Shown here one piece after another: positions 5,875-64,000 of a DNA stretch of 64,000 nucleotides. The stretch is from a virus. The stretch's first letter is position 1, and each line of letters begins with the position of its first letter. The notes under the pieces were generated by a model that did no database searches, had not been told where the DNA came from, and worked only from the letters and a program-made list of their open reading frames with translations. The translations under genes and the position numbers were made by a program. Where the stretch lies: positions 1 to 64,000 of IMG/VR virus record IMGVR_UViG_3300021256_000006. One strand, given 5' to 3'.

Positions 5875-6062
5875 TGAACGGGGGAGGCGACAGATTTGGA
5901 GTACTGGTTGTTTGCTGTGTTTTGCCCCCCCCCGTTCACGGGGCCTTTCACCCCTGTCTTCCCAGGACCTCTATTCGCCTGTTGCAATACAGGCATTTGT
6001 ATCGAATGGGAGAGGGTGGTGGTAGTTTCGTGCCATCTGCCAGTGCTGGCTCGCCCTCTCCC
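5875..6062. ncRNA. candidate structured RNA (GC-rich multi-hairpin block)
   Basis: 10-bp stem TGAACGGGGG/CCCCCGTTCA (5875-5884/5929-5938). 6-bp hairpin GCCTGT/ACAGGC. 9-bp stem GGGAGAGGG/CCCTCTCCC (6008-6016/6054-6062) enclosing GCCAG-TG-CTGGC. No credible ORF. Confidence 0.3.
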
Positions 6063-7809: not shown

Positions 7810-8175
7810 TCAAAATAAACTCATCTGTTCTCCTGGTTCAATATCCGCATCTGTCTCTATGAACATCTTTCTGAATAGATGAAATAACACATCCACCACA
7901 ATGCTGTTACCTGCTAAGTGACACTGGCTTGTTCTGCTGATACCCGCAGCCTGTATCTTGTCAATGCTGGCATCATCGACACCCATCAACCGAAAGAGTT
8001 CTCGTTCCGTCAGTTTGCGGATTTTGAATTTCTTGCCTATCAGTTCGGGCGGCAATTTCAGACGGCCGCATCCAATTTCTTCAATATCCGCACAAGAGAA
8101 ATCAATAAGGCTCTCATCTGCCCAATCCATGCCAGCGAACAGGTCTTGCTGTGTTGCTTCTTCCATATCTGTCAC
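7810..8175 (-). pseudogene. C5-cytosine DNA methyltransferase, C-terminal part (motifs IX-X)
   Basis: KIRKLTERELFRLMG (motif IX) and AGNSIVV (motif X). There is no convincing own start; the track start is GTG. Confidence 0.75.
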
Positions 8176-8193
8176 TATTAAAGGCTCACGATT

Positions 8194-8201
8194 CCCCCCC
8201 C
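8194..8201 (-). repeat. G8 homopolymer (C8 on plus strand) on GGG codons
   Basis: Counted directly. A G7 tract would fuse ..VSPTINTMGG to NREPLIV..GNSIVV. Confidence 0.95.
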
Positions 8202-8595
8202 ATTGTGTTGATGGTGGGGCTCACTCCATCGGTTCCGTACACGTTTCCCGCAAAGCTGCCGCCCGTGAAGCCGTAGATATTGAACAATCTGTTTATTTTC
8301 ACTGTTTGCTATTATAAAGTTATTGCATTCAAACGATGATGTCGTGATTGCAGGACAGATGTCCGTAATTCCGCCATCAAAGTACCCGTGAGGCATCCGT
8401 ATCATTCGTATATCTCGCATATCAAACAATCTTTTGCTACACTTGTAACAGCATTAGCTATTTCATCCCCGAGCTCAATCCGTTGATGATGTTCCGAAGC
8501 ATGCCACTTGCCATCACTCCTTCCTCTCATCGCACAAGCCAGCACTTTCTTCTTCTTCATAAACTTCTACAATTAAAACCATCATCGTCTCAAAT

Positions 8596-8605
8596 CCCCC
8601 CCCCC
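8596..8605 (-). repeat. G10 homopolymer on GGG codons
   Basis: Counted directly. It ends the module ..NCIHTLAGGGI-stop. Confidence 0.95.
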
Positions 8606-8989
8606 GCAAGAGTGTGGATGCAGTTGACATAAGGATTGAGATGAACGCCAACCCAGTCACCTTTCTTGTCACGGCTCCTGCCTAATCCATATACCTTCCT
8701 TTTCATCTTCAGTTCGCATTATCCGTGTCAGGCTCCAAGAAAGGACAATCATCGTTGTACTGGCACACCCCACATATCCGCACATCGCCATGATTGCAAG
8801 TGCGGCTCTCATCATTCGTTGGTACTGACTTAGTTCTTCTCATATTCTATTATAAAAGGTACGACACCACCGTGAGGCCCTGCCGTGATGCAAGGGGCAA
8901 TTCCTGTTGGGTCATATATCTTTCCGTTCTGCTTGCTGTTCCACACCGTCCCCACAATCTTCGTACTCGGCGATGGCTGTTGCTCCGTA

Positions 8990-8999
8990 CCCCCCCCCC
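8990..8999 (-). repeat. G10 homopolymer on GGG codons
   Basis: Counted directly. A G11 tract would fuse ..NSLANFLRGGG to TEQQPSPSTKIVG... Confidence 0.95.
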
Positions 9000-9146
9000 T
9001 CGCAGGAAGTTGGCAAGACTGTTCTTGCAATATTGAGCCTTGATTGTTCTACATGTCCCATTTGGCTCCGCATTAAATGGTATCAATTTCTTCATACAAA
9101 AAGTTATCAGTTTTTCTGTTTCCCGGTCGTGATTGAATCGTCACCG

Positions 9147-9941
9147 CTATATCCCCCCCCCTCGTGGCTTAAAGTCAAAACCATTGCCTTTTTCTTTCTC
9201 TTTCTTGCAACTCTTGAATAGTCCTTGCAACCGTTCCGCTGTGAGATAATACTTCTCGTCAACATTCTCTTCCACCATATCTATCAATCGCTTCTCTAAC
9301 TTGAACGGTTTTGGGAAGTGATAACGCACATTCCCCGCCAAACCCTCCAGTCCGTCCATACGGATGCTTACCAAAAAGATGCGAGGTCGGTGTTGTGGCA
9401 CACCGTAATCCATGCTGTTCAGAATCCTGGCAAAGTTCACATAGCCCAACCGCTCCAATTCCCTCTGCCACAAATTGAACATCCCGACAAACTTCTTCTG
9501 CACCATTGCAGCCACATTCTCCAAACACAAATATTTCGGCCGCTTCGCCATCACCGCATCTCTCACATTCCAAATGATGGAACTTCTAGTTCCGCTTCCT
9601 TCGGCAAAGCCGTGCTGCAAGCCAGCGGCTGAAATTGACTGACACGGTGTTGAGTAAAACAGAAGGTCACAGTCGGGAAATTTCTCCCAATCTATCTTGG
9701 TCATGTCACCCCAATTCCTGTCTGCCCACTGGGGAAACAAGGCATTGTGCGCCCGTACTGCCGGCTGTCGTTCCAACGGCGACTTGCTCTCAGGGTCAAA
9801 CTCACTCCAGGCCACTAACTCGTAGTCAAAGTCAGGATAGAATTTCTTCAATCGCTCTAATGCAAGGCATTGGCTATCATAGCCACTGCAAAGCGTTGCT
9901 ACCCGTAAAGGGTTTGCTTTGGTGTATAAAATCTTTCCCAT
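9147..9941 (-). CDS. C5-cytosine DNA methyltransferase, N-terminal catalytic part (motifs I-VIII)
   Basis: Motif I ATLCSGYDS, motif IV STPCQSIS, motif VI CLENVAAMV, motif VIII VPQHRPRIFLVS. ATG at 9941 is preferred; the track start at 10067 adds 42 aa. Confidence 0.8.
   Translation of the reverse strand: MGKILYTKANPLRVATLCSGYDSQCLALERLKKFYPDFDYELVAWSEFDPESKSPLERQPAVRAHNALFPQWADRNWGDMTKIDWEKFPDCDLLFYSTPCQSISAAGLQHGFAEGSGTRSSIIWNVRDAVMAKRPKYLCLENVAAMVQKKFVGMFNLWQRELERLGYVNFARILNSMDYGVPQHRPRIFLVSIRMDGLEGLAGNVRYHFPKPFKLEKRLIDMVEENVDEKYYLTAERLQGLFKSCKKEKEKGNGFDFKPRGGGI
9153..9161 (-). repeat. G9 homopolymer on GGG codons
   Basis: Counted directly. The N-terminal MTase half ends KPRGGGI-TAG. A G10 tract would continue as GGGDIAVTIQSRPGNRK... 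Confidence 0.95.
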
Positions 9942-41529: not shown

Positions 41530-41606
41530 CCCCCAGGGTGTGTGAGTGTAGCAAATATCTCACACATCCACTAATTTCAAATTCATCATCTAAATCATCA
41601 ACAATT

Positions 41607-44600
41607 ATGGCAACAAAACTACAAAGGCTTCGCGACAACATCGAAGCCATCAGGCACGCCCTGACATCCCCGCATTACGATGCCGACATCATGAACAAGT
41701 ACACGGGATTTGGCGGCATGACTTTTCTCCTCAACAACTTGGAGAAGAAATCATGGAGCAAGACTGACAAGCCCTGCTATGACGACACCGTGAAACTGCG
41801 CCAGCTGCTGCATGACAAGAGCGAGAACGAGAAACAATACGAGGCATGGATACAGAGTCTGAAGGCAAGCACATCTACCGCCTACTACACACCAAGGGAG
41901 ATTCCTCAAACGCTCTTCGACAATCTCTACCACATGGCAAAAGGTTGGTACGACAGCAACATCTATCCCAAAAAGGTGCTTGACCCATCAGCAGGAACTG
42001 GAGTCTTCATGTGCTCTGTCCTCCAAGCCTCTCTGGATTCCGGCAACATCCCTAAGCAAGTGGGCTACGAACTTGACCTACTCACAGGAACTATCCTCAA
42101 ACAAAGACTCCTGGGGCATGACATCCGCATCAAGGGTTTTGAGACCATCCCGAATGAAGACCTCGGCACATTCGACCTCGTGACCACCAATGTTCCCTTC
42201 GGCAACATCAACGTGTTTGACCCTCTCTACACCAATAGCAAGGAGCAAGTGAAAAGGGATGCAGCAAAGATGATCCACCGCTACTATGTGCTGAAAGGTC
42301 TTGATTGCCTCCGCAATGGAGGAGTGCTTGCCTACATCATCACCAGCAACTACATCAACCGTGACAACGACCAATTGGCAGAAGCGCTGAAGCACGCCAA
42401 CCTCGTCACCGCCATCCGATTTCCGAACAACCTCTTCAAGGAGGCGGGAACAGAAGTAGGGACCGACCTTCTCATACTCCAGAAGGACGAGCACAAGCAA
42501 GCTCTCACAGAAGACGAGCAGCAACTCCTCACACCTATGGAAATGGACGATTGCCCAACCAACCTCTACTTCAACAATCATCCCGACCACATCATTGCCA
42601 CCTCCACCGAGATAGGCACCGACCCCTACGGAAAGCCTGGCTATATCTACTACCACAAAGACGGAGTGCAAGGCGTAGCCGCAGACATGGGCCGCTTGCT
42701 CAAAGCGGAATTGCCAAACATTGACAAGTCTGCCTTTCAAAAGGGCCCCTCACTCTCTCCATCTTCCTCCCTTGCAGTCAGCGGTTCCCCCGCTGACACC
42801 ACTTCCCCCGCTCCCACCGCCAAGCATCCCATTCCTAATTCCTCATTCCTCATTCCTAATTCCGAACCCCTCTTCTTCCACTATGCCAACAAGTTTTTCC
42901 TCTTCTTCACCTTTGCACCAAGCAAGCATCAAGCACCTGCAAGCAAAGAACAGAAACTGAAAAACTTGCACAAGTTATACACCGACCTCTACAATTACGA
43001 GGCAAGCTATCAGAACGAGGACGAAGAAGGGCGCTGCAAGTTGAATGCTTCTTATGATTTGTTCGTCAGGTCTTACGGTTTCCTGAACGATTCCAAGAAT
43101 GCTTCTCTTGCCAAGCGTTTAGGCATTACCGACTTGCTTGCCATTGAGCGTTACGAGAATGGCACATGGGTAAAGGCAGACATCATGCTGGCACCCGTCG
43201 CCTTCTCCACCGACGAGGAACCGAAAGCGAGCTCACCCCAAGAGGCATTGGCAGCATCGCTGAATAAATACGGAAAGCCCAATATTGATTATATGCTCTC
43301 CATCACCACCTGTACCCGTGACCAACTTCTCAGCGAACTGCATGACGAGGTGTTCCTCAACCCCATCAACGGGCAATACGAAGTCAGGGCAAAGTTCCTC
43401 AGCGGAAATGTGATTGAGAAGATTGATGCAATCGAAAAACTTTCAGCTTCTCAACTGTCAACTGCGACCTGTCAACTTTCGCTGAAGGCTCTCAAGTCTG
43501 TCATCCCCGCTCCCATTCCTTTTGAGGAACTTGACTTCAACCTTGGCGAGCGCTGGATTGACTGCAAGGTGTATGAGCGCTTCGCCAACGACTTCTTCTC
43601 CATGCCTGGCAACACTCCCGACATCGAGGTGCGCTACAATCCTCTCCTCGACCAGTATGCAGCAGGTCTCAGGAAATGGGACTGGAATGAGAAGATACGC
43701 ACTCAGTACGCGGTCAAGAGTGAAGCATCCAAGACGCTTGACGGACTTGAAATATTCACTCATGCCCTGCATAATACAATACCCAAGTTGATGAAGTATC
43801 AACGAGACAAGGAAGGGCGCATCATGACGGACGAGAACTACGATAAAATTAAAATAGAGGACTCGGAGAATATGCAGTTGGCAGCAACCAAGATTGAAGA
43901 AATCAGACAGGCATTTGAGGAGTGGCTACGCCGACAGCCAAGGGAGTTCAGGGATGATTTGGCCAGCGTATACAACCATCGCTTCAACTGCTTTGTCAAG
44001 CCTAAATATGACGGTAGCCATCAGACATTCCCGGACCTCAACATGAAAGGGCTGAAAGAAAAGTATGGCATTGACCACATCTACGACAGCCAAAAGGATT
44101 GCGTCTGGATGCTCTTGCTGAATGGTGGTGGCATCTGCGACCACGAGGTAGGAAGCGGAAAGACACTCATCATGTGTATTGCAGCCCACGAGATGAAACG
44201 TCTCGGACTGTGCCACAAGCCAATGATAATAGGCATGAAGGCCAACGTGAGTGCCATAGCAGAAACATATCGGACAGCATATCCCAATGCTCGCATCCTC
44301 TTCGCTACAGAGGCTGACTACTCGGCAAGCAACCGTATGGCGTTCTTCAACAACGCCAAAAACAACGACTATGACTGCATCATCATGAGCCACGACCAGT
44401 TCGGACGTATTCCACAGAGCGAAAAAATACAGCTCGACATCATGTGCGACGAACTGCGACAGGTAGAAGACAGTCTGACAGCAATGGAGGATTGGGGCTA
44501 CAAAGTGACTTCAAAAATGCTCCGTGGATTGGAGATTAGAAAGCGCAACCTTCACGCAAAAATCATGAACCTCCGCAATTCTATCAATTCGAGGAAGGAT

Positions 44601-46628
44601 GATATTGTGGACTTCGAGAGGCTGGGCATTGACCACATCTTCATTGACGAGAGCCACCAGTTCAAGAACCTCGGCTTTGTGACACGGCATGACCGCGTGG
44701 CTGGCATTGGCAACACACAGGGCAGCAAGCGTGCTTTCAATCTGTTGATGGCCATCCGCACCATACAGAACCGCACAGGGCGTGACCTCGGTGCCACCTT
44801 CCTCAGTGGCACCACCGTTACTAATTCCCTCACAGAACTGTTCCTTCTCTTCAAGTATCTCCGGCCCAATGCACTTCGCAAACAAGCCATCACTTGCTTC
44901 GATGCTTGGGCTGCTATATTCACGAAGAAGAGCACGGAGTTCGAGTTCAATGTCACCAACTGCATCGTTCAGAAGGAGCGCTTCCGTTACTTTATCAAGG
45001 TGCCGGAACTCGCCATGTTCTACAACGAGATTACAGACTTCCGAACGGCAGAGGATGTCGGCATCGAACGACCCCAAAAGCATGCAAGACTGCTGAACAT
45101 AAAGCCGACACCGGACCAAGAGGGCTTCATTGAGCGTCTGATGAAGTTTGCGCAGGGAGGTTCCCCTTCCCTGATATTCCGTGAAAGCCTTTCCGACAAC
45201 GAGGAAAAGGCGCGTATGCTTATCTGTACCGACCTCGCTCGAAAGATGTCTCTGGATATGCGGCTGATTGACCCTCGCTTTGGTGATCATCCATCCAACA
45301 AGGCAAGCCAATGCGCCAACCTCGTCAAGAAGTATTATGATGAATATGACGACCAACGTGGCACACAGCTCATCTTCTCCGACATATCCACATGGCAAAA
45401 CAATACCGATTGGAGTGTGTACAGCGAAATCAAGCGAAAGCTGATGGACATGGGCATACCTGGCAGCGAAATCAGGTTCATTCAGGAGTGTAAGAACGAC
45501 CACCAAAAACAATTGCTCATTGAGCAGGTCAACCTCGGATATGTGCGTGTCCTCTTTGGCTCCACATCCATGCTGGGTACCGGAGTGAACCTCCAGCAGC
45601 GAGTGGTGGCCGTGCATCACCTCGACACACCGTGGCGACCTTCCGACCTCGAACAGAGAGACGGACGGGCCATCCGGAAAGGAAACGAAGTGGCACGGCT
45701 CTATGCCAACAACCAAGTAGATGTTATCATCTATGCTGTTGAACGCTCGTTGGACTCTTACAAGTTCAATCTCCTGCACCTCAAACAAACCTTCATCAAC
45801 CAACTCAAACGAGGACAACTCGGAGTGAGAACGATTGACGAGGGCAGCATGGACGAGAACGGCATGAACTTCTCGGAGTACATGGCTATTCTTTCCGGCA
45901 ACACCGACTTGCTGGAACGTGCCAAACTGGAGAAGCGCATTGCCATGCTGGAGGCCGAACGCAAGAACTTCTACCGTGACCAGCGAGAACAAGAGGAAAA
46001 AATGGAAACGCTGAAAAAGGATAACGAGCTCTACAAAAATCACCTTGCAGACGCCCAAGCCGACTTTGCCAAGTTCAACAAAGCAAGGCGCCTCGATGAA
46101 GAGGGCAATGTAGTGAACGACCTCCGTCTGGATGGTCTCGCACTCAGCGGTTCCCCCGCTGAGATACAAACCCTCCTCGGCAACCACCTCATCAAAATTG
46201 CCAACACCGCCAGAACACAAGATGCCCACCTTCCCATCGGCTCCATCTATGGATTCAAGGTGCTGGTCAAGACGGTGGAGACAGCAACGATGGACGGCAA
46301 TCCGCAGTACGCTAATATGTTCTTTGTCAGCAGCGACACACTCATGTATTCTTACAATAATGGCTACATCAATCGCAACTCTCCCAAGGCATCAGCACTC
46401 TACCCGCTGAACGCCTTGCAGCGCATCCCGGAAATCATCACTGGGTGGATGGAGAAAATCGAAAGCAACGAGAACAGCATCAAGCAGATTGCATCTATCC
46501 TTTCCGCAACGACTGAATGGTCAAAGGAGGACCGTTTGAAGCAGCTGAAGAATGACCTCAAACTTCTTGACAAGAAGATTGAGGAAGACATGAAGAAAAA
46601 GGACGAGCCCACCAAGAAAGCAGCCTAA
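41607..46628 (+). CDS. DarB-like fused N6-adenine methyltransferase / SF2 (SNF2-type) helicase
   Basis: MTase motif I VLDPSAGTGVF and motif IV TNVPFGN. Helicase motifs EVGSGKT, IFIDESHQFKN, TSMLGTGVNLQ and QRDGRAIRKGN. ATG at 41607 is preferred over the GTG at 41538. Confidence 0.8.
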   Translation: MATKLQRLRDNIEAIRHALTSPHYDADIMNKYTGFGGMTFLLNNLEKKSWSKTDKPCYDDTVKLRQLLHDKSENEKQYEAWIQSLKASTSTAYYTPREIPQTLFDNLYHMAKGWYDSNIYPKKVLDPSAGTGVFMCSVLQASLDSGNIPKQVGYELDLLTGTILKQRLLGHDIRIKGFETIPNEDLGTFDLVTTNVPFGNINVFDPLYTNSKEQVKRDAAKMIHRYYVLKGLDCLRNGGVLAYIITSNYINRDNDQLAEALKHANLVTAIRFPNNLFKEAGTEVGTDLLILQKDEHKQALTEDEQQLLTPMEMDDCPTNLYFNNHPDHIIATSTEIGTDPYGKPGYIYYHKDGVQGVAADMGRLLKAELPNIDKSAFQKGPSLSPSSSLAVSGSPADTTSPAPTAKHPIPNSSFLIPNSEPLFFHYANKFFLFFTFAPSKHQAPASKEQKLKNLHKLYTDLYNYEASYQNEDEEGRCKLNASYDLFVRSYGFLNDSKNASLAKRLGITDLLAIERYENGTWVKADIMLAPVAFSTDEEPKASSPQEALAASLNKYGKPNIDYMLSITTCTRDQLLSELHDEVFLNPINGQYEVRAKFLSGNVIEKIDAIEKLSASQLSTATCQLSLKALKSVIPAPIPFEELDFNLGERWIDCKVYERFANDFFSMPGNTPDIEVRYNPLLDQYAAGLRKWDWNEKIRTQYAVKSEASKTLDGLEIFTHALHNTIPKLMKYQRDKEGRIMTDENYDKIKIEDSENMQLAATKIEEIRQAFEEWLRRQPREFRDDLASVYNHRFNCFVKPKYDGSHQTFPDLNMKGLKEKYGIDHIYDSQKDCVWMLLLNGGGICDHEVGSGKTLIMCIAAHEMKRLGLCHKPMIIGMKANVSAIAETYRTAYPNARILFATEADYSASNRMAFFNNAKNNDYDCIIMSHDQFGRIPQSEKIQLDIMCDELRQVEDSLTAMEDWGYKVTSKMLRGLEIRKRNLHAKIMNLRNSINSRKDDIVDFERLGIDHIFIDESHQFKNLGFVTRHDRVAGIGNTQGSKRAFNLLMAIRTIQNRTGRDLGATFLSGTTVTNSLTELFLLFKYLRPNALRKQAITCFDAWAAIFTKKSTEFEFNVTNCIVQKERFRYFIKVPELAMFYNEITDFRTAEDVGIERPQKHARLLNIKPTPDQEGFIERLMKFAQGGSPSLIFRESLSDNEEKARMLICTDLARKMSLDMRLIDPRFGDHPSNKASQCANLVKKYYDEYDDQRGTQLIFSDISTWQNNTDWSVYSEIKRKLMDMGIPGSEIRFIQECKNDHQKQLLIEQVNLGYVRVLFGSTSMLGTGVNLQQRVVAVHHLDTPWRPSDLEQRDGRAIRKGNEVARLYANNQVDVIIYAVERSLDSYKFNLLHLKQTFINQLKRGQLGVRTIDEGSMDENGMNFSEYMAILSGNTDLLERAKLEKRIAMLEAERKNFYRDQREQEEKMETLKKDNELYKNHLADAQADFAKFNKARRLDEEGNVVNDLRLDGLALSGSPAEIQTLLGNHLIKIANTARTQDAHLPIGSIYGFKVLVKTVETATMDGNPQYANMFFVSSDTLMYSYNNGYINRNSPKASALYPLNALQRIPEIITGWMEKIESNENSIKQIASILSATTEWSKEDRLKQLKNDLKLLDKKIEEDMKKKDEPTKKAA
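42772..42925 (+). repeat. intergenic-type composite element embedded in frame in the methylase-helicase ORF
   Basis: Hairpin motif at 42772-42797, heptamers CATTCCTAATTCCTCATTCCTCATTCCTAATTCC at 42830-42863, then TTCTTCACCTTTGCACC resembling the promoter box at 46793-46808. Confidence 0.7.
46138..46163 (+). repeat. hairpin motif copy inside coding sequence
   Basis: TCGCACTCAGCGGTTCCCCCGCTGAG, encoding LALSGSPAE. Confidence 0.75.
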
Positions 46629-46917: not shown

Positions 46918-46985
46918 CTGCGTACAGCGGTTTTCCCGCTGACACCGCTCAATCACCCTCCCTGCGTACAGCGGTTTTCCCGCTG
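46918..46985 (+). repeat. two hairpin motif copies (46918-46941, 46962-46985)
   Basis: CTGCGTACAGCGGTTTTCCCGCTG twice, 20 nt apart. Confidence 0.9.
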
Positions 46986-51781: not shown

Positions 51782-52171
51782 TTCCAGCAAGGTTGGCAAC
51801 GAACAGAAAAGACTCTCATTAAAATAATACATAATCACAACAAATTTACATAAAAACAATATACTGGGGACGTTATCCTGTCTAAAAATCCTCTGTTTAC
51901 GAACAAACTTAGGGCTAAAATCCAATTCATGTGCGAATGAGTTAAGCCGTCATAATTAAATTACTTCATCCGGTTTCTCACTTTTTTGGCTACAAATTTA
52001 TGCGCACATATTGTATATATATGTATGCAAAAGTATGTTTTGCAGCATGTTTTTCCTGTTGAGAACTTGGCTTCCTAAAGCAAAGTTCTCAAAATTTTTT
52101 CATCACCCCAACCACCAAAGGCCAAACTATGCCCTTTTGTCACTTACCCCCCCCTTTCTCCCTCCTCTCTC

Positions 52172-52195
52172 CTGCGTCCAGCGGTTTTCCCGCTG
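52172..52195 (+). repeat. hairpin motif copy
   Basis: CTGCGTCCAGCGGTTTTCCCGCTG. Confidence 0.9.
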
Positions 52196-63449: not shown

Positions 63450-63586
63450 CCGTTTTCGTTTTCGTCTTCGTTTTGGTTTTCGTTTCTCCTGCGCTCAGCG
63501 GTTTTCCCGCTGGCCCTCTCTCCTCGTCTCTCCCGCCGTTTTCGTTTTCGTTTTCGTTTCTACTGCGCTCAGCGGTTTTCCCGCTG
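63450..63586 (+). repeat. GTTTTS hexamer arrays plus two hairpin motif copies (63489-63512, 63563-63586)
   Basis: CTGCGCTCAGCGGTTTTCCCGCTG twice, 50 nt apart. A C9 run follows at 63594-63602. Confidence 0.9.
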
Positions 63587-63603
63587 ATTCTCTCCCCCCC
63601 CCA

Positions 63604-64000
63604 TCAGCAATAATTGAACGGCATAACCACATTGACGTGCAGCACCACACTCTCCCAACCGTCTCCAAACGGACCGGTTGTGTCCCAGCTTAGATTGTCC
63701 ACATCAATCCAGAAAGCCAGCCCCATTGTATGATTCTTTTTGGCATCTTTGTGCGCAGAGACAAGGTCTTTGACAAACGCCTCAGTCATGTTTTGGGCGC
63801 GGTCAAGCGCTGCCGCCAGCCCTTGTGCGTTGGCATAGTCTGGCTCTCGGGCATTCATGTACAGTTCAAACGTGGCATACTTGAAGTCGCCTCTTTTCCC
63901 ACCGCCATAATTGAGGTCCATCATGGTAGAGTGAAATATCTCATTGCTCGCATGCTGCAGCATGTCCATCTTGCCCGCAAAGCCGTTGGCCAAAAAGCAC
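63604..64000 (-). CDS. hypothetical structural-module protein, N-terminus beyond window edge
   Basis: The frame stays open from 63993 to the window end. The track start is a TTG. Confidence 0.5.
   Translation of the reverse strand, partial: CFLANGFAGKMDMLQHASNEIFHSTMMDLNYGGGKRGDFKYATFELYMNAREPDYANAQGLAAALDRAQNMTEAFVKDLVSAHKDAKKNHTMGLAFWIDVDNLSWDTTGPFGDGWESVVLHVNVVMPFNYC

Follow-up and report, generated by a model that had tools for sequence, protein, structure and literature searches.

A putative fragmented multispecific C5-cytosine methyltransferase with separately encoded, G-tract-controlled target-recognition domains in a gut phage

Organization of the methyltransferase locus

We analyzed a C5-cytosine methyltransferase locus in the first 64,000 nucleotides (nt) of the IMG/VR virus record IMGVR_UViG_3300021256_000006. 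This 64-kb stretch is referred to as the window; all coordinates are window positions, and all features of the locus lie on the minus strand (Table 1). Two open reading frames (ORFs) of the locus each match a part of the C5-methyltransferase family PF00145 in Pfam. The N-terminal half (N-half), from an ATG at 9941 to a TAG at 9147, matches positions 2-226 of 324 (E = 7.5e-39), and of its motifs I-VIII, which include AdoMet binding, the catalytic PCQ, ENV, and QxRxR are readable in the translation as PCQSIS, ENV, and QHRPR. The C-terminal half (C-half, 8175..7810) matches positions 270-322 (E = 3.4e-7), which correspond to motifs IX-X. Both halves are bona fide C5-methyltransferase parts. The family positions absent from both halves make up the variable region that houses the target-recognition domain (TRD). 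As in M.AquI, the split point falls inside this variable region, between a subunit with motifs I-VIII and a subunit with motifs IX-X, and the motif order is canonical, not circularly permuted. An earlier, sequence-only reading of the window had described such a split, with the N-half stopping at a run of nine G and the C-half resuming about 970 nt further on. We confirm this arrangement: the TAG lies one codon past the G9 run at 9153-9161, and the gap measures 972 nt. At the present tract lengths, the C-half has internal starts only (GTG at 8175) and no ATG start. By megablast, the locus matched none of 50,697 GenBank phages.

The 972 nt between the halves hold seven TRD modules and one Cys-rich mini-ORF, in changing frames that make use of all three. 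In general, a module opens with an ATG of its own (Met-Lys/Arg...) and closes with a hydrophobic strand and an acidic tail (..I/V-x-E-I/V-Y-E). In four TRDs, a G tract occupies the Gly-Gly-Gly that follows a T-L/I motif. Pfam and PHROGs assigned no family to the individual mini-ORFs, and their identification as TRDs is due instead to blastp, in which TRD1, 2, 3, 5, 6, 7, and 8 are 35-67% identical to homologous segments within the variable regions of single-chain C5-methyltransferases. Judged by this homology, the modules are real TRDs, often occurring several in tandem within one chain, and the TRD-like segments picked out by the sequence-only reading hold up.

Several modules can be followed individually into relatives (L-numbers denote related loci or contigs and P-numbers related proteins). 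TRD1, whose longer reading is DIAVTIQSRPGNRKTDNFLYEE, is in frame in P0001, P0002, P0005, and others, and homologous TRDs of single-chain enzymes are 40-55% identical to it. The whole of TRD2 reads MKKLIPFNAEPNGTCRTIKAQYCKNSLANFLRGGG followed by YGATAIAEYE. TRD3 (fuller reading KIVGTVWNSKQNGKIYDPTGIAPCITAGPHGGVVPFIIEYE) continues in frame from the module upstream of it, as a fusion, in L001, L006, and L010, and resembles QGERIYSTRGIAITLSAYGGG, which we take to be a stretch of M.HhaI. TRD5, with the conserved terminal strand FETMMVLIVEVYEEE, occurs as a stand-alone ORF of 50-79 amino acids (aa) in 20 protein clusters from independent samples. TRD6 is an intact ORF in L001, L011, and L014 at 62-65% identity, and TRD7 is fused in frame to TRD8 and the C-half in L006, P0447, P0450, and P0453.

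The remaining mini-ORF, ORF4, has the pattern C-x-H-G-D-V-R-I-C-x-V-C-Q-Y-N-D-D-C-P and is kept in the arrays of L004-L011, L016, L027, and L028 at 59-98% identity. Its Pfam matches are limited to weak ones to zf-CCCH, and blastp found no counterpart in single-chain methyltransferases. ORF4 might encode an accessory that binds zinc, or else a recognition module of an unusual kind.

Table 1. Features of the locus in window coordinates, listed in the direction of translation, with the substitutions at codon positions 1/2/3 in an alignment with five relatives
Feature	Position	Strand	Content and effect of tract length	Substitutions
N-terminal catalytic ORF, motifs I-VIII	9147..9941	-	264 aa at present tract length, C-terminus GGGI-TAG	71/49/172
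T1	9153-9161	-	G9, Gly-Gly-Gly of TRD1; off; G10 or G7 attaches TRD1 to the N-half
TRD1 frame	9073..9153	-	DIAVTIQSRPGNRKTDNFLYEEIDTI, then stop; attached to the N-half when T1 is on
ORF2 start, TRD2 N-part	9000..9095	-	MKKLIPFNAEPNGTCRTIKAQYCKNSLANFLR; ATG within the end of the TRD1 frame; homologs in related arrays
T2	8990-8999	-	G10; G9 completes TRD2; G8 or G11 fuses TRD2 N-part to TRD3
TRD2 C-part frame	8912..8989	-	YGATAIAEYEDCG...KDI, then stop; in frame in L007, L009	0/0/3 (first 39 nt after T2, YGAT frame)
TRD3 frame	8830..8988	-	...KIVGTVWNSKQNGKIYDPTGIAPCITAGPHGGVVPFIIEYEKN, then stop	4/1/7 (core)
ORF4, Cys-rich 44-aa mini-ORF	8709..8843	-	MRRTKSVPTNDESRTCNHGDVRICGVCQYNDDCPFLEPDTDNAN; not TRD-like	5/8/15
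ORF5, TRD5 N-part	8590..8706	-	MKRKVYGLGRSRDKKGDWVGVHLNPYVNCIHTLAGGG; truncated at present T3 length	3/3/12
T3	8596-8605	-	G10, TRD5 truncated (off); G9 restores the last strand of TRD5
TRD5 C-part frame	8514..8594	-	FETMMVLIVEVYEEEESAGLCDERKE, then stop; in frame in L004, L006, L009, P0121-P0137
ORF6 = TRD6	8402..8560	-	MKKKKVLACAMRGRSDGKW...ANAVTSVAKDCLICEIYE; no tract; ATG inside the YEEE codons of TRD5	6/3/18
ORF7 = TRD7	8178..8405	-	MIRMPHGYFDGGITDICPAITTSSFECNNFII...; ATGA stop/start overlap with ORF6; frame continues through T4	2/1/6
ORF8 = TRD8	8186..8302	-	GTG start; VKINRLFNIYGFTGGSFAGNVYGTDGVSPTINTMGG...; fuller reading VKINRLFNIYGFTGGSFAGNVYGTDGVSPTINTMGGG, then NREPLIVTD into the C-half	0/1/12 (N-part)
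T4	8194-8201	-	G8, nothing joined (off); G7 or G10 joins TRD8 to the C-half
C-terminal frame	7810..8193	-	NREPLIVTD, linker, motif IX (KIRKLTERELFRLMG), motif X (GNSIVVDV)	20/12/49 (C-half)

To compare substitutions, we aligned the window with the five closest relatives first compared (L004, L006, L007, L009, and L010; 79-92% DNA identity). Every indel of 1-2 nt in this alignment lies in a tract, and the other differences are substitutions or insertions and swaps of whole modules. The substitutions are biased toward the third codon position (Table 1); in TRD8, the codon differences from the window, summed over the five relatives, comprise 33 synonymous and 1 non-synonymous. This pattern indicates that the mini-ORFs are under purifying selection in the frames given. 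In addition, relatives have in-frame counterparts of the modules switched off in the window, and the joined protein reconstructed for an on state of T4 (164 aa) has natural forms at 90-95% identity (P0141, P0143, and P0144). A sequence search of PDB with the joined C-subunit gave weak matches only, to residues 334-393 of M.MpeI (PDB 4dkj), which are motifs IX-X, plus a short match of TRD8.

G tracts and their length variation

The window contains exactly seven G/C runs of at least 8 nt, all of them C on the plus strand (G on the minus strand). Four of them, T1 to T4, lie inside the locus on Gly-Gly-Gly, as the sequence-only reading had noted. The distribution of run lengths is bimodal, with 710, 124, and 24 runs of 3, 4, and 5 nt, none of 6-7 nt, and seven of 8-10 nt. 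In 300 sequences simulated with a first-order Markov model that keeps the dinucleotide frequencies, 0.47 runs of at least 8 nt were expected (maximum 4) against 7 observed, and 9.9 runs of 6-7 nt (minimum 1) against 0. At the four tracts, Gly-Gly-Gly is spelled entirely with G's, the T4 run being one base short. Elsewhere in the window, GGG is the rarest Gly codon (10%), and three other Gly-Gly-Gly tripeptides, from long ORFs sampled there, contain zero GGG codons. The tracts are selected and not a product of chance.

In the window, each of the four tracts is at an off length. At the two outer ones, the frame predictions of the sequence-only reading stand: one more G in T1 (G10, or equally G7) links the N-half to TRD1, and one fewer in T4 (G7, or equally G10) links TRD8 to the C-half, a junction present in natural homologs at 90-95% identity. 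At G9, T4 would instead join the ORF7 frame to the C-half. For T2, the proposed gain of one G does fuse the N-terminal part of TRD2 to TRD3, but the loss of one G completes TRD2, and it is the frame of this second option that is under selection just after the tract. At its present G10, T2 leads into the third frame, which has no third-codon-position bias, and neither TRD is made. T3 had been taken for a mere toggle of a short tail, which proved mistaken, since the loss of one G restores the terminal strand of TRD5, in frame in relatives. With the tract lengths of the window, intact products would be expected from TRD6 and TRD7 only, and possibly from ORF4.

We also computed the reading frames for all 625 combinations of tract lengths in which each tract is lengthened or shortened by at most 2 nt. 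The N-ORF reaches 289 aa at most, and motifs IV and X share a frame in 0 of the 625 combinations; the single polypeptide typical of C5-methyltransferases is never obtained. Therefore, the locus cannot be an ordinary gene broken by homopolymer errors.

Tract lengths vary among relatives. T1 measures 9, 8, 7, 5, 8, and 6 nt in close relatives, T2 measures 10, 10, 6, and 8 nt, and T3 measures 10, 9, 9, 10, 9, and 8 nt, while L001 has no tract at the T3 position and is in frame there. Since the five relatives of the alignment are too divergent (79-92%) to judge a mutation rate, we used the set L040, L041, and L042 instead. L040 and L041, contigs of different ENA assemblies, align over 5207 nt with 0 mismatches, and the three gaps between them all fall in G tracts (T1, 8 versus 9; T2, 10 versus 9; a tract in a downstream gene, 10 versus 8). 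L040 and L042 align over 4183 nt, also with 0 mismatches, and their only gap is again in a tract. Among the 24 members listed for N-half clusters at ≥90% identity, including two representatives, 10 are ON and 14 are OFF, and interrupted tracts (GGDD, GVGD, GGAD) would constitute "locked ON" alleles. Clusters of the C-half at ≥90% identity likewise contain joined forms of 157-204 aa and unjoined forms of 106-130 aa, with MGGE and MGGD as locked variants. These comparisons mark the tracts as hypermutable, which is the population signature of contingency loci. Altogether, the locus combines three of the features by which phase-variable loci are recognized: tracts in coding sequence that shift the frame, over-representation of such tracts, and length variation between otherwise identical genomes.

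The window itself is identical, tracts included, to a 99.5-kb ENA contig at 178x coverage. Another contig, L049 (JGI 3300002641), is 100% identical to the window and ends exactly at T2 (window 8999/9000), which would fit an assembly interrupted by a homopolymer that is heterogeneous or poorly read. In several relatives (L040:4135-4144, L041:4135-4142, L042:4135-4143, and L004:7016-7023), one more G8-G10 tract follows shortly downstream of the methyltransferase locus, in the overlap of an ORF of 127-143 aa and an ORF of the PAPS-reductase family (PF01507). Its length differs among otherwise identical contigs, and it looks like the switch of another phase-variable gene of the DNA-modification type; the window does not contain these genes.

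The split family, its single-chain kin, and permuted relatives

A search with the N-half returned 4076 homologs, and the best 120 of these 4076 are all 239-337 aa long, with their ends at TRD1 or immediately behind it. With the C-half, the search returned 1578 stand-alone homologs, the best 120 of which are all 91-263 aa long. As judged from these matches, the split layout recurs in thousands of metagenomic relatives. Both halves were found in 23 fetched loci, with a spacing of 0.16-2.9 kb (0.8-2.9 kb without the deletion variant L012), and eleven further loci reach the contig end, or have a C-half elsewhere, before any downstream C-half. In the 28 loci whose array can be delimited, there are 102 G/C tracts of at least 7 nt in 37.7 kb (89 G and 13 C), a density of 2.7 per kb; the flanks, 156.6 kb in total, contain 7 (0.045 per kb). 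L027 has 14 tracts in 2.85 kb over about 15 modules. The positions of the tracts are conserved across divergent phages.

Three relatives, L014, L017, and L019, have no tract of at least 7 nt and consist of an N-ORF, 3-6 mini-ORFs, and a C-ORF. Their mini-ORFs are 42-117 aa long, begin with their own ATG (usually Met-Lys/Arg), contain one TRD each (two in one ORF), and end in ..I/V-x-E-I/V-Y-E/D, and the C-ORF consists of one or two TRDs plus motifs IX-X. These tract-free relatives are equally split, and therefore the split does not come from the tracts. Stop and start codons overlap in the manner of a tightly coupled operon, and the next ATG very often lies within the preceding Tyr-Glu codons (TATGAA). 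In L002, poly-C tracts stand right after the MKQ start codons of TRD mini-ORFs and link the start to the TRD frame. This is the classical position of a translational phase switch, and it is sensible only if translation starts at those MKQ codons. Across the arrays, the terminal strand-plus-acid motif is present in 66 of 206 sense-strand ATG ORFs of 35-100 aa, compared with 1 of 100 antisense controls, and the second residue is Lys or Arg in 95 of the 206.

In a library of representatives at 50% identity, the nearest cluster is a 281-aa N-half, and most relatives at 45-67% identity are single chains of 340-860 aa. By blastp, P0351 (571 aa) carries TRD1, TRD3/8, TRD7, and TRD6, followed by the C-terminal motifs, and P0408 (626 aa) carries TRD8, 7, 6, and 5, again followed by the C-terminal motifs. 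L035, from a Muribaculaceae bin, has one ORF of 595 aa with about six TRDs. Since the same TRD types stand in tandem in distant single chains, the ancestor was a classical multispecific enzyme, and the present family is a fragmented derivative of it.

A second group of relatives has a circularly permuted core. In L023 and L032/L033, the core lies in one ORF (357 or 414 aa) with the order IX-X-I-VIII, with which the two Pfam stretches are consistent; in sequence matches, L021 and L034 have the same upstream IX-X match and core tail. The permuted core has a conserved non-TRD tail and no TRD. Behind it stand four or five TRD mini-ORFs, each on its own and 44-79 aa long, which have the start and end features described above, and no IX-X part was found downstream of the cores of L023 and L032/L033. 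Several of these mini-ORFs are homologous to those of non-permuted loci and to TRDs within single chains; of nine compared, m5 and n4 matched only their locus of origin, and n1 only its origin and the duplicate L033. Because of the permuted order, no change of reading frame can put a TRD between motifs VIII and IX, and joining TRDs after motif VIII would require a recoding event at each junction. Therefore, the permuted loci would be either dead genes under purifying selection or loci whose TRD peptides work in trans.

Two single loci of the family deserve description. In L012 (L012:3741-3905), the interval from T1 to T4 is deleted and KPKRGG[G8]NREPLIVTD is left, so that the halves abut at one G tract with no TRD; this deletion suggests that the tracts also act as points of recombination or deletion. 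In L043 (L043:82-2004; Logan DRR596596), the N-terminal methyltransferase ORF is 640 aa long and contains Hint_2, Intein_splicing, and LAGLIDADG, which is an intein in the catalytic half.

The related loci come mostly from bins named Bacteroidales, Muribaculaceae, Bacteroidaceae, Paludibacteraceae, and Candidatus Enterocola, with a few other names. In tblastn, the neighboring primase has matches of <60% identity only, with about 22% over the longest ones to the nearest cultured phages (Polaribacter and Bacteroides phages) and up to 38% over shorter ones to Helicobacter phages. Taken from these affinities, the host is likely a member of the Bacteroidales, and the locus most likely originates from a gut phage of this order.

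Possible mode of action and alternative explanations

We interpret the locus as, more likely than not, a fragmented multispecific C5-methyltransferase with TRDs that are separately translated and individually phase-variable; we favor this interpretation over each of the alternatives below. A phase-variable multispecific methyltransferase was among the possibilities named by the sequence-only reading, and it is favored because the tracts are over-represented, conserved in position, variable in length, and the sole differences between identical contigs. Beyond that proposal, the modules appear to be separate translation units, the layout is that of a widespread family, and permuted relatives have free-standing TRDs only. 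An N-subunit with motifs I-VIII and a C-subunit with motifs IX-X would share catalysis, with an operon-like row of mini-genes between them, one TRD per gene. The N-subunit could carry the first of these TRDs and the C-subunit the last. Slippage in a tract would shift the frame and thereby complete or truncate one TRD, and a length change in T2 or T4 would swap one TRD for another. Since the TRDs would be translated separately, a frameshift would affect one of them and spare the others and motifs IX-X. A phage population would then be a mixture of methylation-specificity combinations, which may serve as bet-hedging against hosts that differ in restriction enzymes and methyl-dependent nucleases. 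Such an anti-restriction benefit would fit a phage that also encodes a DarB-like giant protein. This protein of 1696 aa (41538-46628, plus strand; phrog_10089, E = 1.4e-261) represents a second, independent anti-restriction investment.

The evidence is evenly balanced on a further step, in which TRDs of 40-70 aa, each with its own switch, would be detachable subunits that dock on a TRD-less split or permuted core and confer combinatorial, Type-I-like 5-methylcytosine specificity. A free TRD peptide would bind the N- and C-subunits, or in permuted loci the core, non-covalently and supply one specificity. From our own structural reasoning, docking could be mediated by the uniform ..E-I/V-Y-E strand, whose counterpart in single-chain enzymes directly precedes motif IX. 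We infer action in trans mainly because the permuted relatives have only free-standing TRDs. Natural C5 enzymes of two polypeptides exist (M.AquI and M.EcoHK31I), and splits in the proximal variable region of native C5 enzymes do complement (PMC3404938).

Several points weigh against these proposals. We found no precedent for a TRD-only peptide acting in trans, and we know of no documented slippage-based phase variation in Bacteroidales phages. ORF4 falls outside the TRD scheme, and some of the tract-length differences could be homopolymer consensus errors. The AlphaFold2 model of the C-subunit alone, from a 44-sequence alignment, is of low confidence (predicted local distance difference test [pLDDT] score 61, predicted template modeling [pTM] score 0.32) and lends no structural support. 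Finally, engineered large-domain and small-domain fragments of permuted M.MpeI and M.SssI failed to complement each other (PMC5944983).

This failure of TRD-domain fragments is also one of the observations that speak for the best-placed alternative, which we nevertheless regard as unlikely: a two-subunit enzyme of the M.AquI type, in which only the TRDs attached to the N- and C-ORFs are active, the end tracts switch them, and the internal mini-ORFs are silent cassettes that recombine into the ends. The commonest forms are indeed N-ORFs that end in TRD1 and C-ORFs that start with one or two TRDs, and modules are swapped, inserted, and reordered (L004, L009, and L011), as well as deleted between T1 and T4 in L012. 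However, the internal mini-ORFs keep their ATG, intact frames, and the third-position substitution bias, tracts directly after internal start codons would be pointless in silent cassettes, and the permuted relatives are without any attached TRD. An M.AquI-type split had also been raised by the sequence-only reading; the two halves it calls for are there, but the division goes beyond two subunits, with five more conserved mini-ORFs between the halves and with every TRD in its own mini-ORF even in tract-free relatives.

Considerably less probable is recoding, by transcriptional slippage on the G runs or by frameshifting or re-initiation at the TATGA(A/G) junctions, that would build long multi-TRD chains. 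Runs of G9-G10 are slippery for polymerases, the junction with the next ATG in Tyr-Glu codons is strikingly regular, and single-chain relatives do have tandem TRDs. Nevertheless, seven or more successive shifts would be required, the junctions differ in geometry (neighboring ORFs overlap by 4 to about 50 nt or by ATGA, or are separated by a 2-nt spacer), and a tRNA-Tyr on UAU should be unable to re-pair on AUG. The tract-free relatives, moreover, have stops between modules without a slippery run.

We give slightly less credence again to free TRD peptides that do not direct methylation, for example, decoys or inhibitors that bind DNA or host restriction enzymes. Conserved small proteins without a catalytic part, in a phage that invests in anti-restriction through its DarB-like giant protein, would suit such a function, but the mini-ORFs always lie inside or beside a methyltransferase core gene, with no independent occurrence seen, and they are homologous to working TRDs of single-chain enzymes.

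The last two explanations, both of which had been listed by the sequence-only reading, can be largely set aside. A homopolymer error in sequencing or assembly that broke one ordinary ORF is very improbable: long G runs are error-prone and the identical JGI contig stops at T2, but no combination of tract lengths yields a single ORF, the 99.5-kb contig has the same lengths at 178x, the tract-free relatives are equally split, and tract positions are conserved across divergent phages. A decaying pseudogene, suggested by four tracts that are all off and a C-half that at present has no ATG start, is the least credible of all in view of the codon-position bias of the substitutions (33 to 1 in TRD8), the layout shared by thousands of relatives, and intact ON alleles at 90-96% identity. 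Two other candidates were rejected. Stop-codon reassignment fails because the N-ORF frame meets a TAG and then a TGA two codons on, and because all three stops separate modules; ribosome hopping between Gly codons in the style of phage T4 gene 60 would have to cover distances of hundreds of nucleotides.

The fragmented, phase-variable enzyme that we favor shares parts with several known systems. The multispecific enzymes of Bacillus phages (M.SPRI, M.phi3TI, M.rho11sI, and M.H2I) have one core into which, between motifs VIII and IX, TRDs of about 40-60 aa are inserted in tandem, one for each specificity. The locus resembles them in being phage-encoded with several tandem TRDs at that place (seven modules), and the single-chain relatives L035, P0351, and P0408 share their exact form. 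In contrast, TRDs and core do not form one polypeptide in the window, where separate mini-ORFs in shifting frames, a split core, and hypermutable G/C tracts are found; the Bacillus-phage enzymes are single polypeptides and, as far as we know, have no such switches. Bacterial simple-sequence-repeat systems include the Type III mod phasevarions, poly-G tracts in restriction-modification genes of Campylobacter, Helicobacter, and Neisseria, and a poly-G tract in the hsdS gene of NgoAV that alters specificity. They have in common with the present locus coding homopolymers, length polymorphism between near-identical genomes, ON/OFF or C-terminal switching, and interrupted, locked alleles; they differ in having one or two tracts per gene, whose change usually loses or truncates the whole enzyme, whereas the phage loci have up to 14 tracts (L027), each acting on one module.

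Among split enzymes, M.EcoHK31I has a β polypeptide of about 61 aa encoded in another reading frame. This polypeptide carries motif IX and not a TRD, and the enzyme has a single fixed specificity, unlike the arrangement proposed here. In this enzyme, the small β polypeptide gives an essential C5-methyltransferase part (motif IX) to the α polypeptide in trans, and in M.AquI the large subunit holds motifs I-VIII along with a portion of the variable region, and the small subunit the rest and motifs IX-X (PMC3404938). M.AquI corresponds to the N-ORF (plus TRD1) and the C-ORF (TRD8 plus IX-X) with T1 and T4 on, but it comprises two polypeptides with one specificity, compared with up to nine ORFs, alternative TRDs, and tract-controlled switching. 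The natural circular permutants M.BssHII and M.Alw26I keep the TRD in the chain, in the order TRD-IX-X-I-VIII (PMC5944983); the relatives L023 and L032 share the placement of IX-X before I-VIII, but have a TRD-less core and free TRD mini-ORFs. The HsdS subunit of Type I systems is an analogy only: it too is a separate, exchangeable, and often phase-variable specificity part for a common catalytic part, but there is no homology, it serves N6-adenine methyltransferases and varies mostly by inversion or recombination, and the action in trans proposed for the free TRDs is our inference.

If free TRDs act in trans, they would represent a new architecture of C5-methyltransferases, which have hitherto been known as monomers or, rarely, two-piece enzymes, and they would offer a natural, minimal, swappable DNA-recognition module of 40-70 aa for engineered targeted cytosine methylation. 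The locus would also be a clear case of simple-sequence-repeat phase variation in gut Bacteroidales phages, with up to 14 independent switches per locus, and its target would be an anti-restriction function, not a receptor-binding protein. The literature searches, which did not extend to most subscription journals and are no proof of novelty, turned up neither TRD mini-genes nor phage C5 methyltransferases switched by poly-G. Members of the family abound in public metagenomes from gut, rumen, and other sources (4076 N-half and 1578 C-half matches), and since gene callers label them as truncated methylases, the family has probably been overlooked or dismissed as broken genes. The interpretation provides a testable model of how a phage could hedge when methylation blocks one kind of enzyme, the restriction enzymes, but provokes another, the methyl-dependent nucleases.

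The three remaining long G tracts of the window are intergenic (5925-5933, 52147-52154, and 63594-63602) and lie just downstream of an exonuclease gene, a gene for a tape-measure-like protein of 2246 aa, and the ORF 63604-63993. They could vary the function of a promoter or terminator. In addition, a hairpin motif, CAGCGGGAAAACCGCTG, is present in 10 copies with ≤2 mismatches (0.02 expected), all on the minus strand between 42779 and 63586 (for example, 46925-46941, 52179-52195, and 63570-63586). The tracts at 52147-52154 and 63594-63602 each lie about 10-40 nt from a copy of this hairpin, which may be a terminator or regulatory element coupled to a variable tract.

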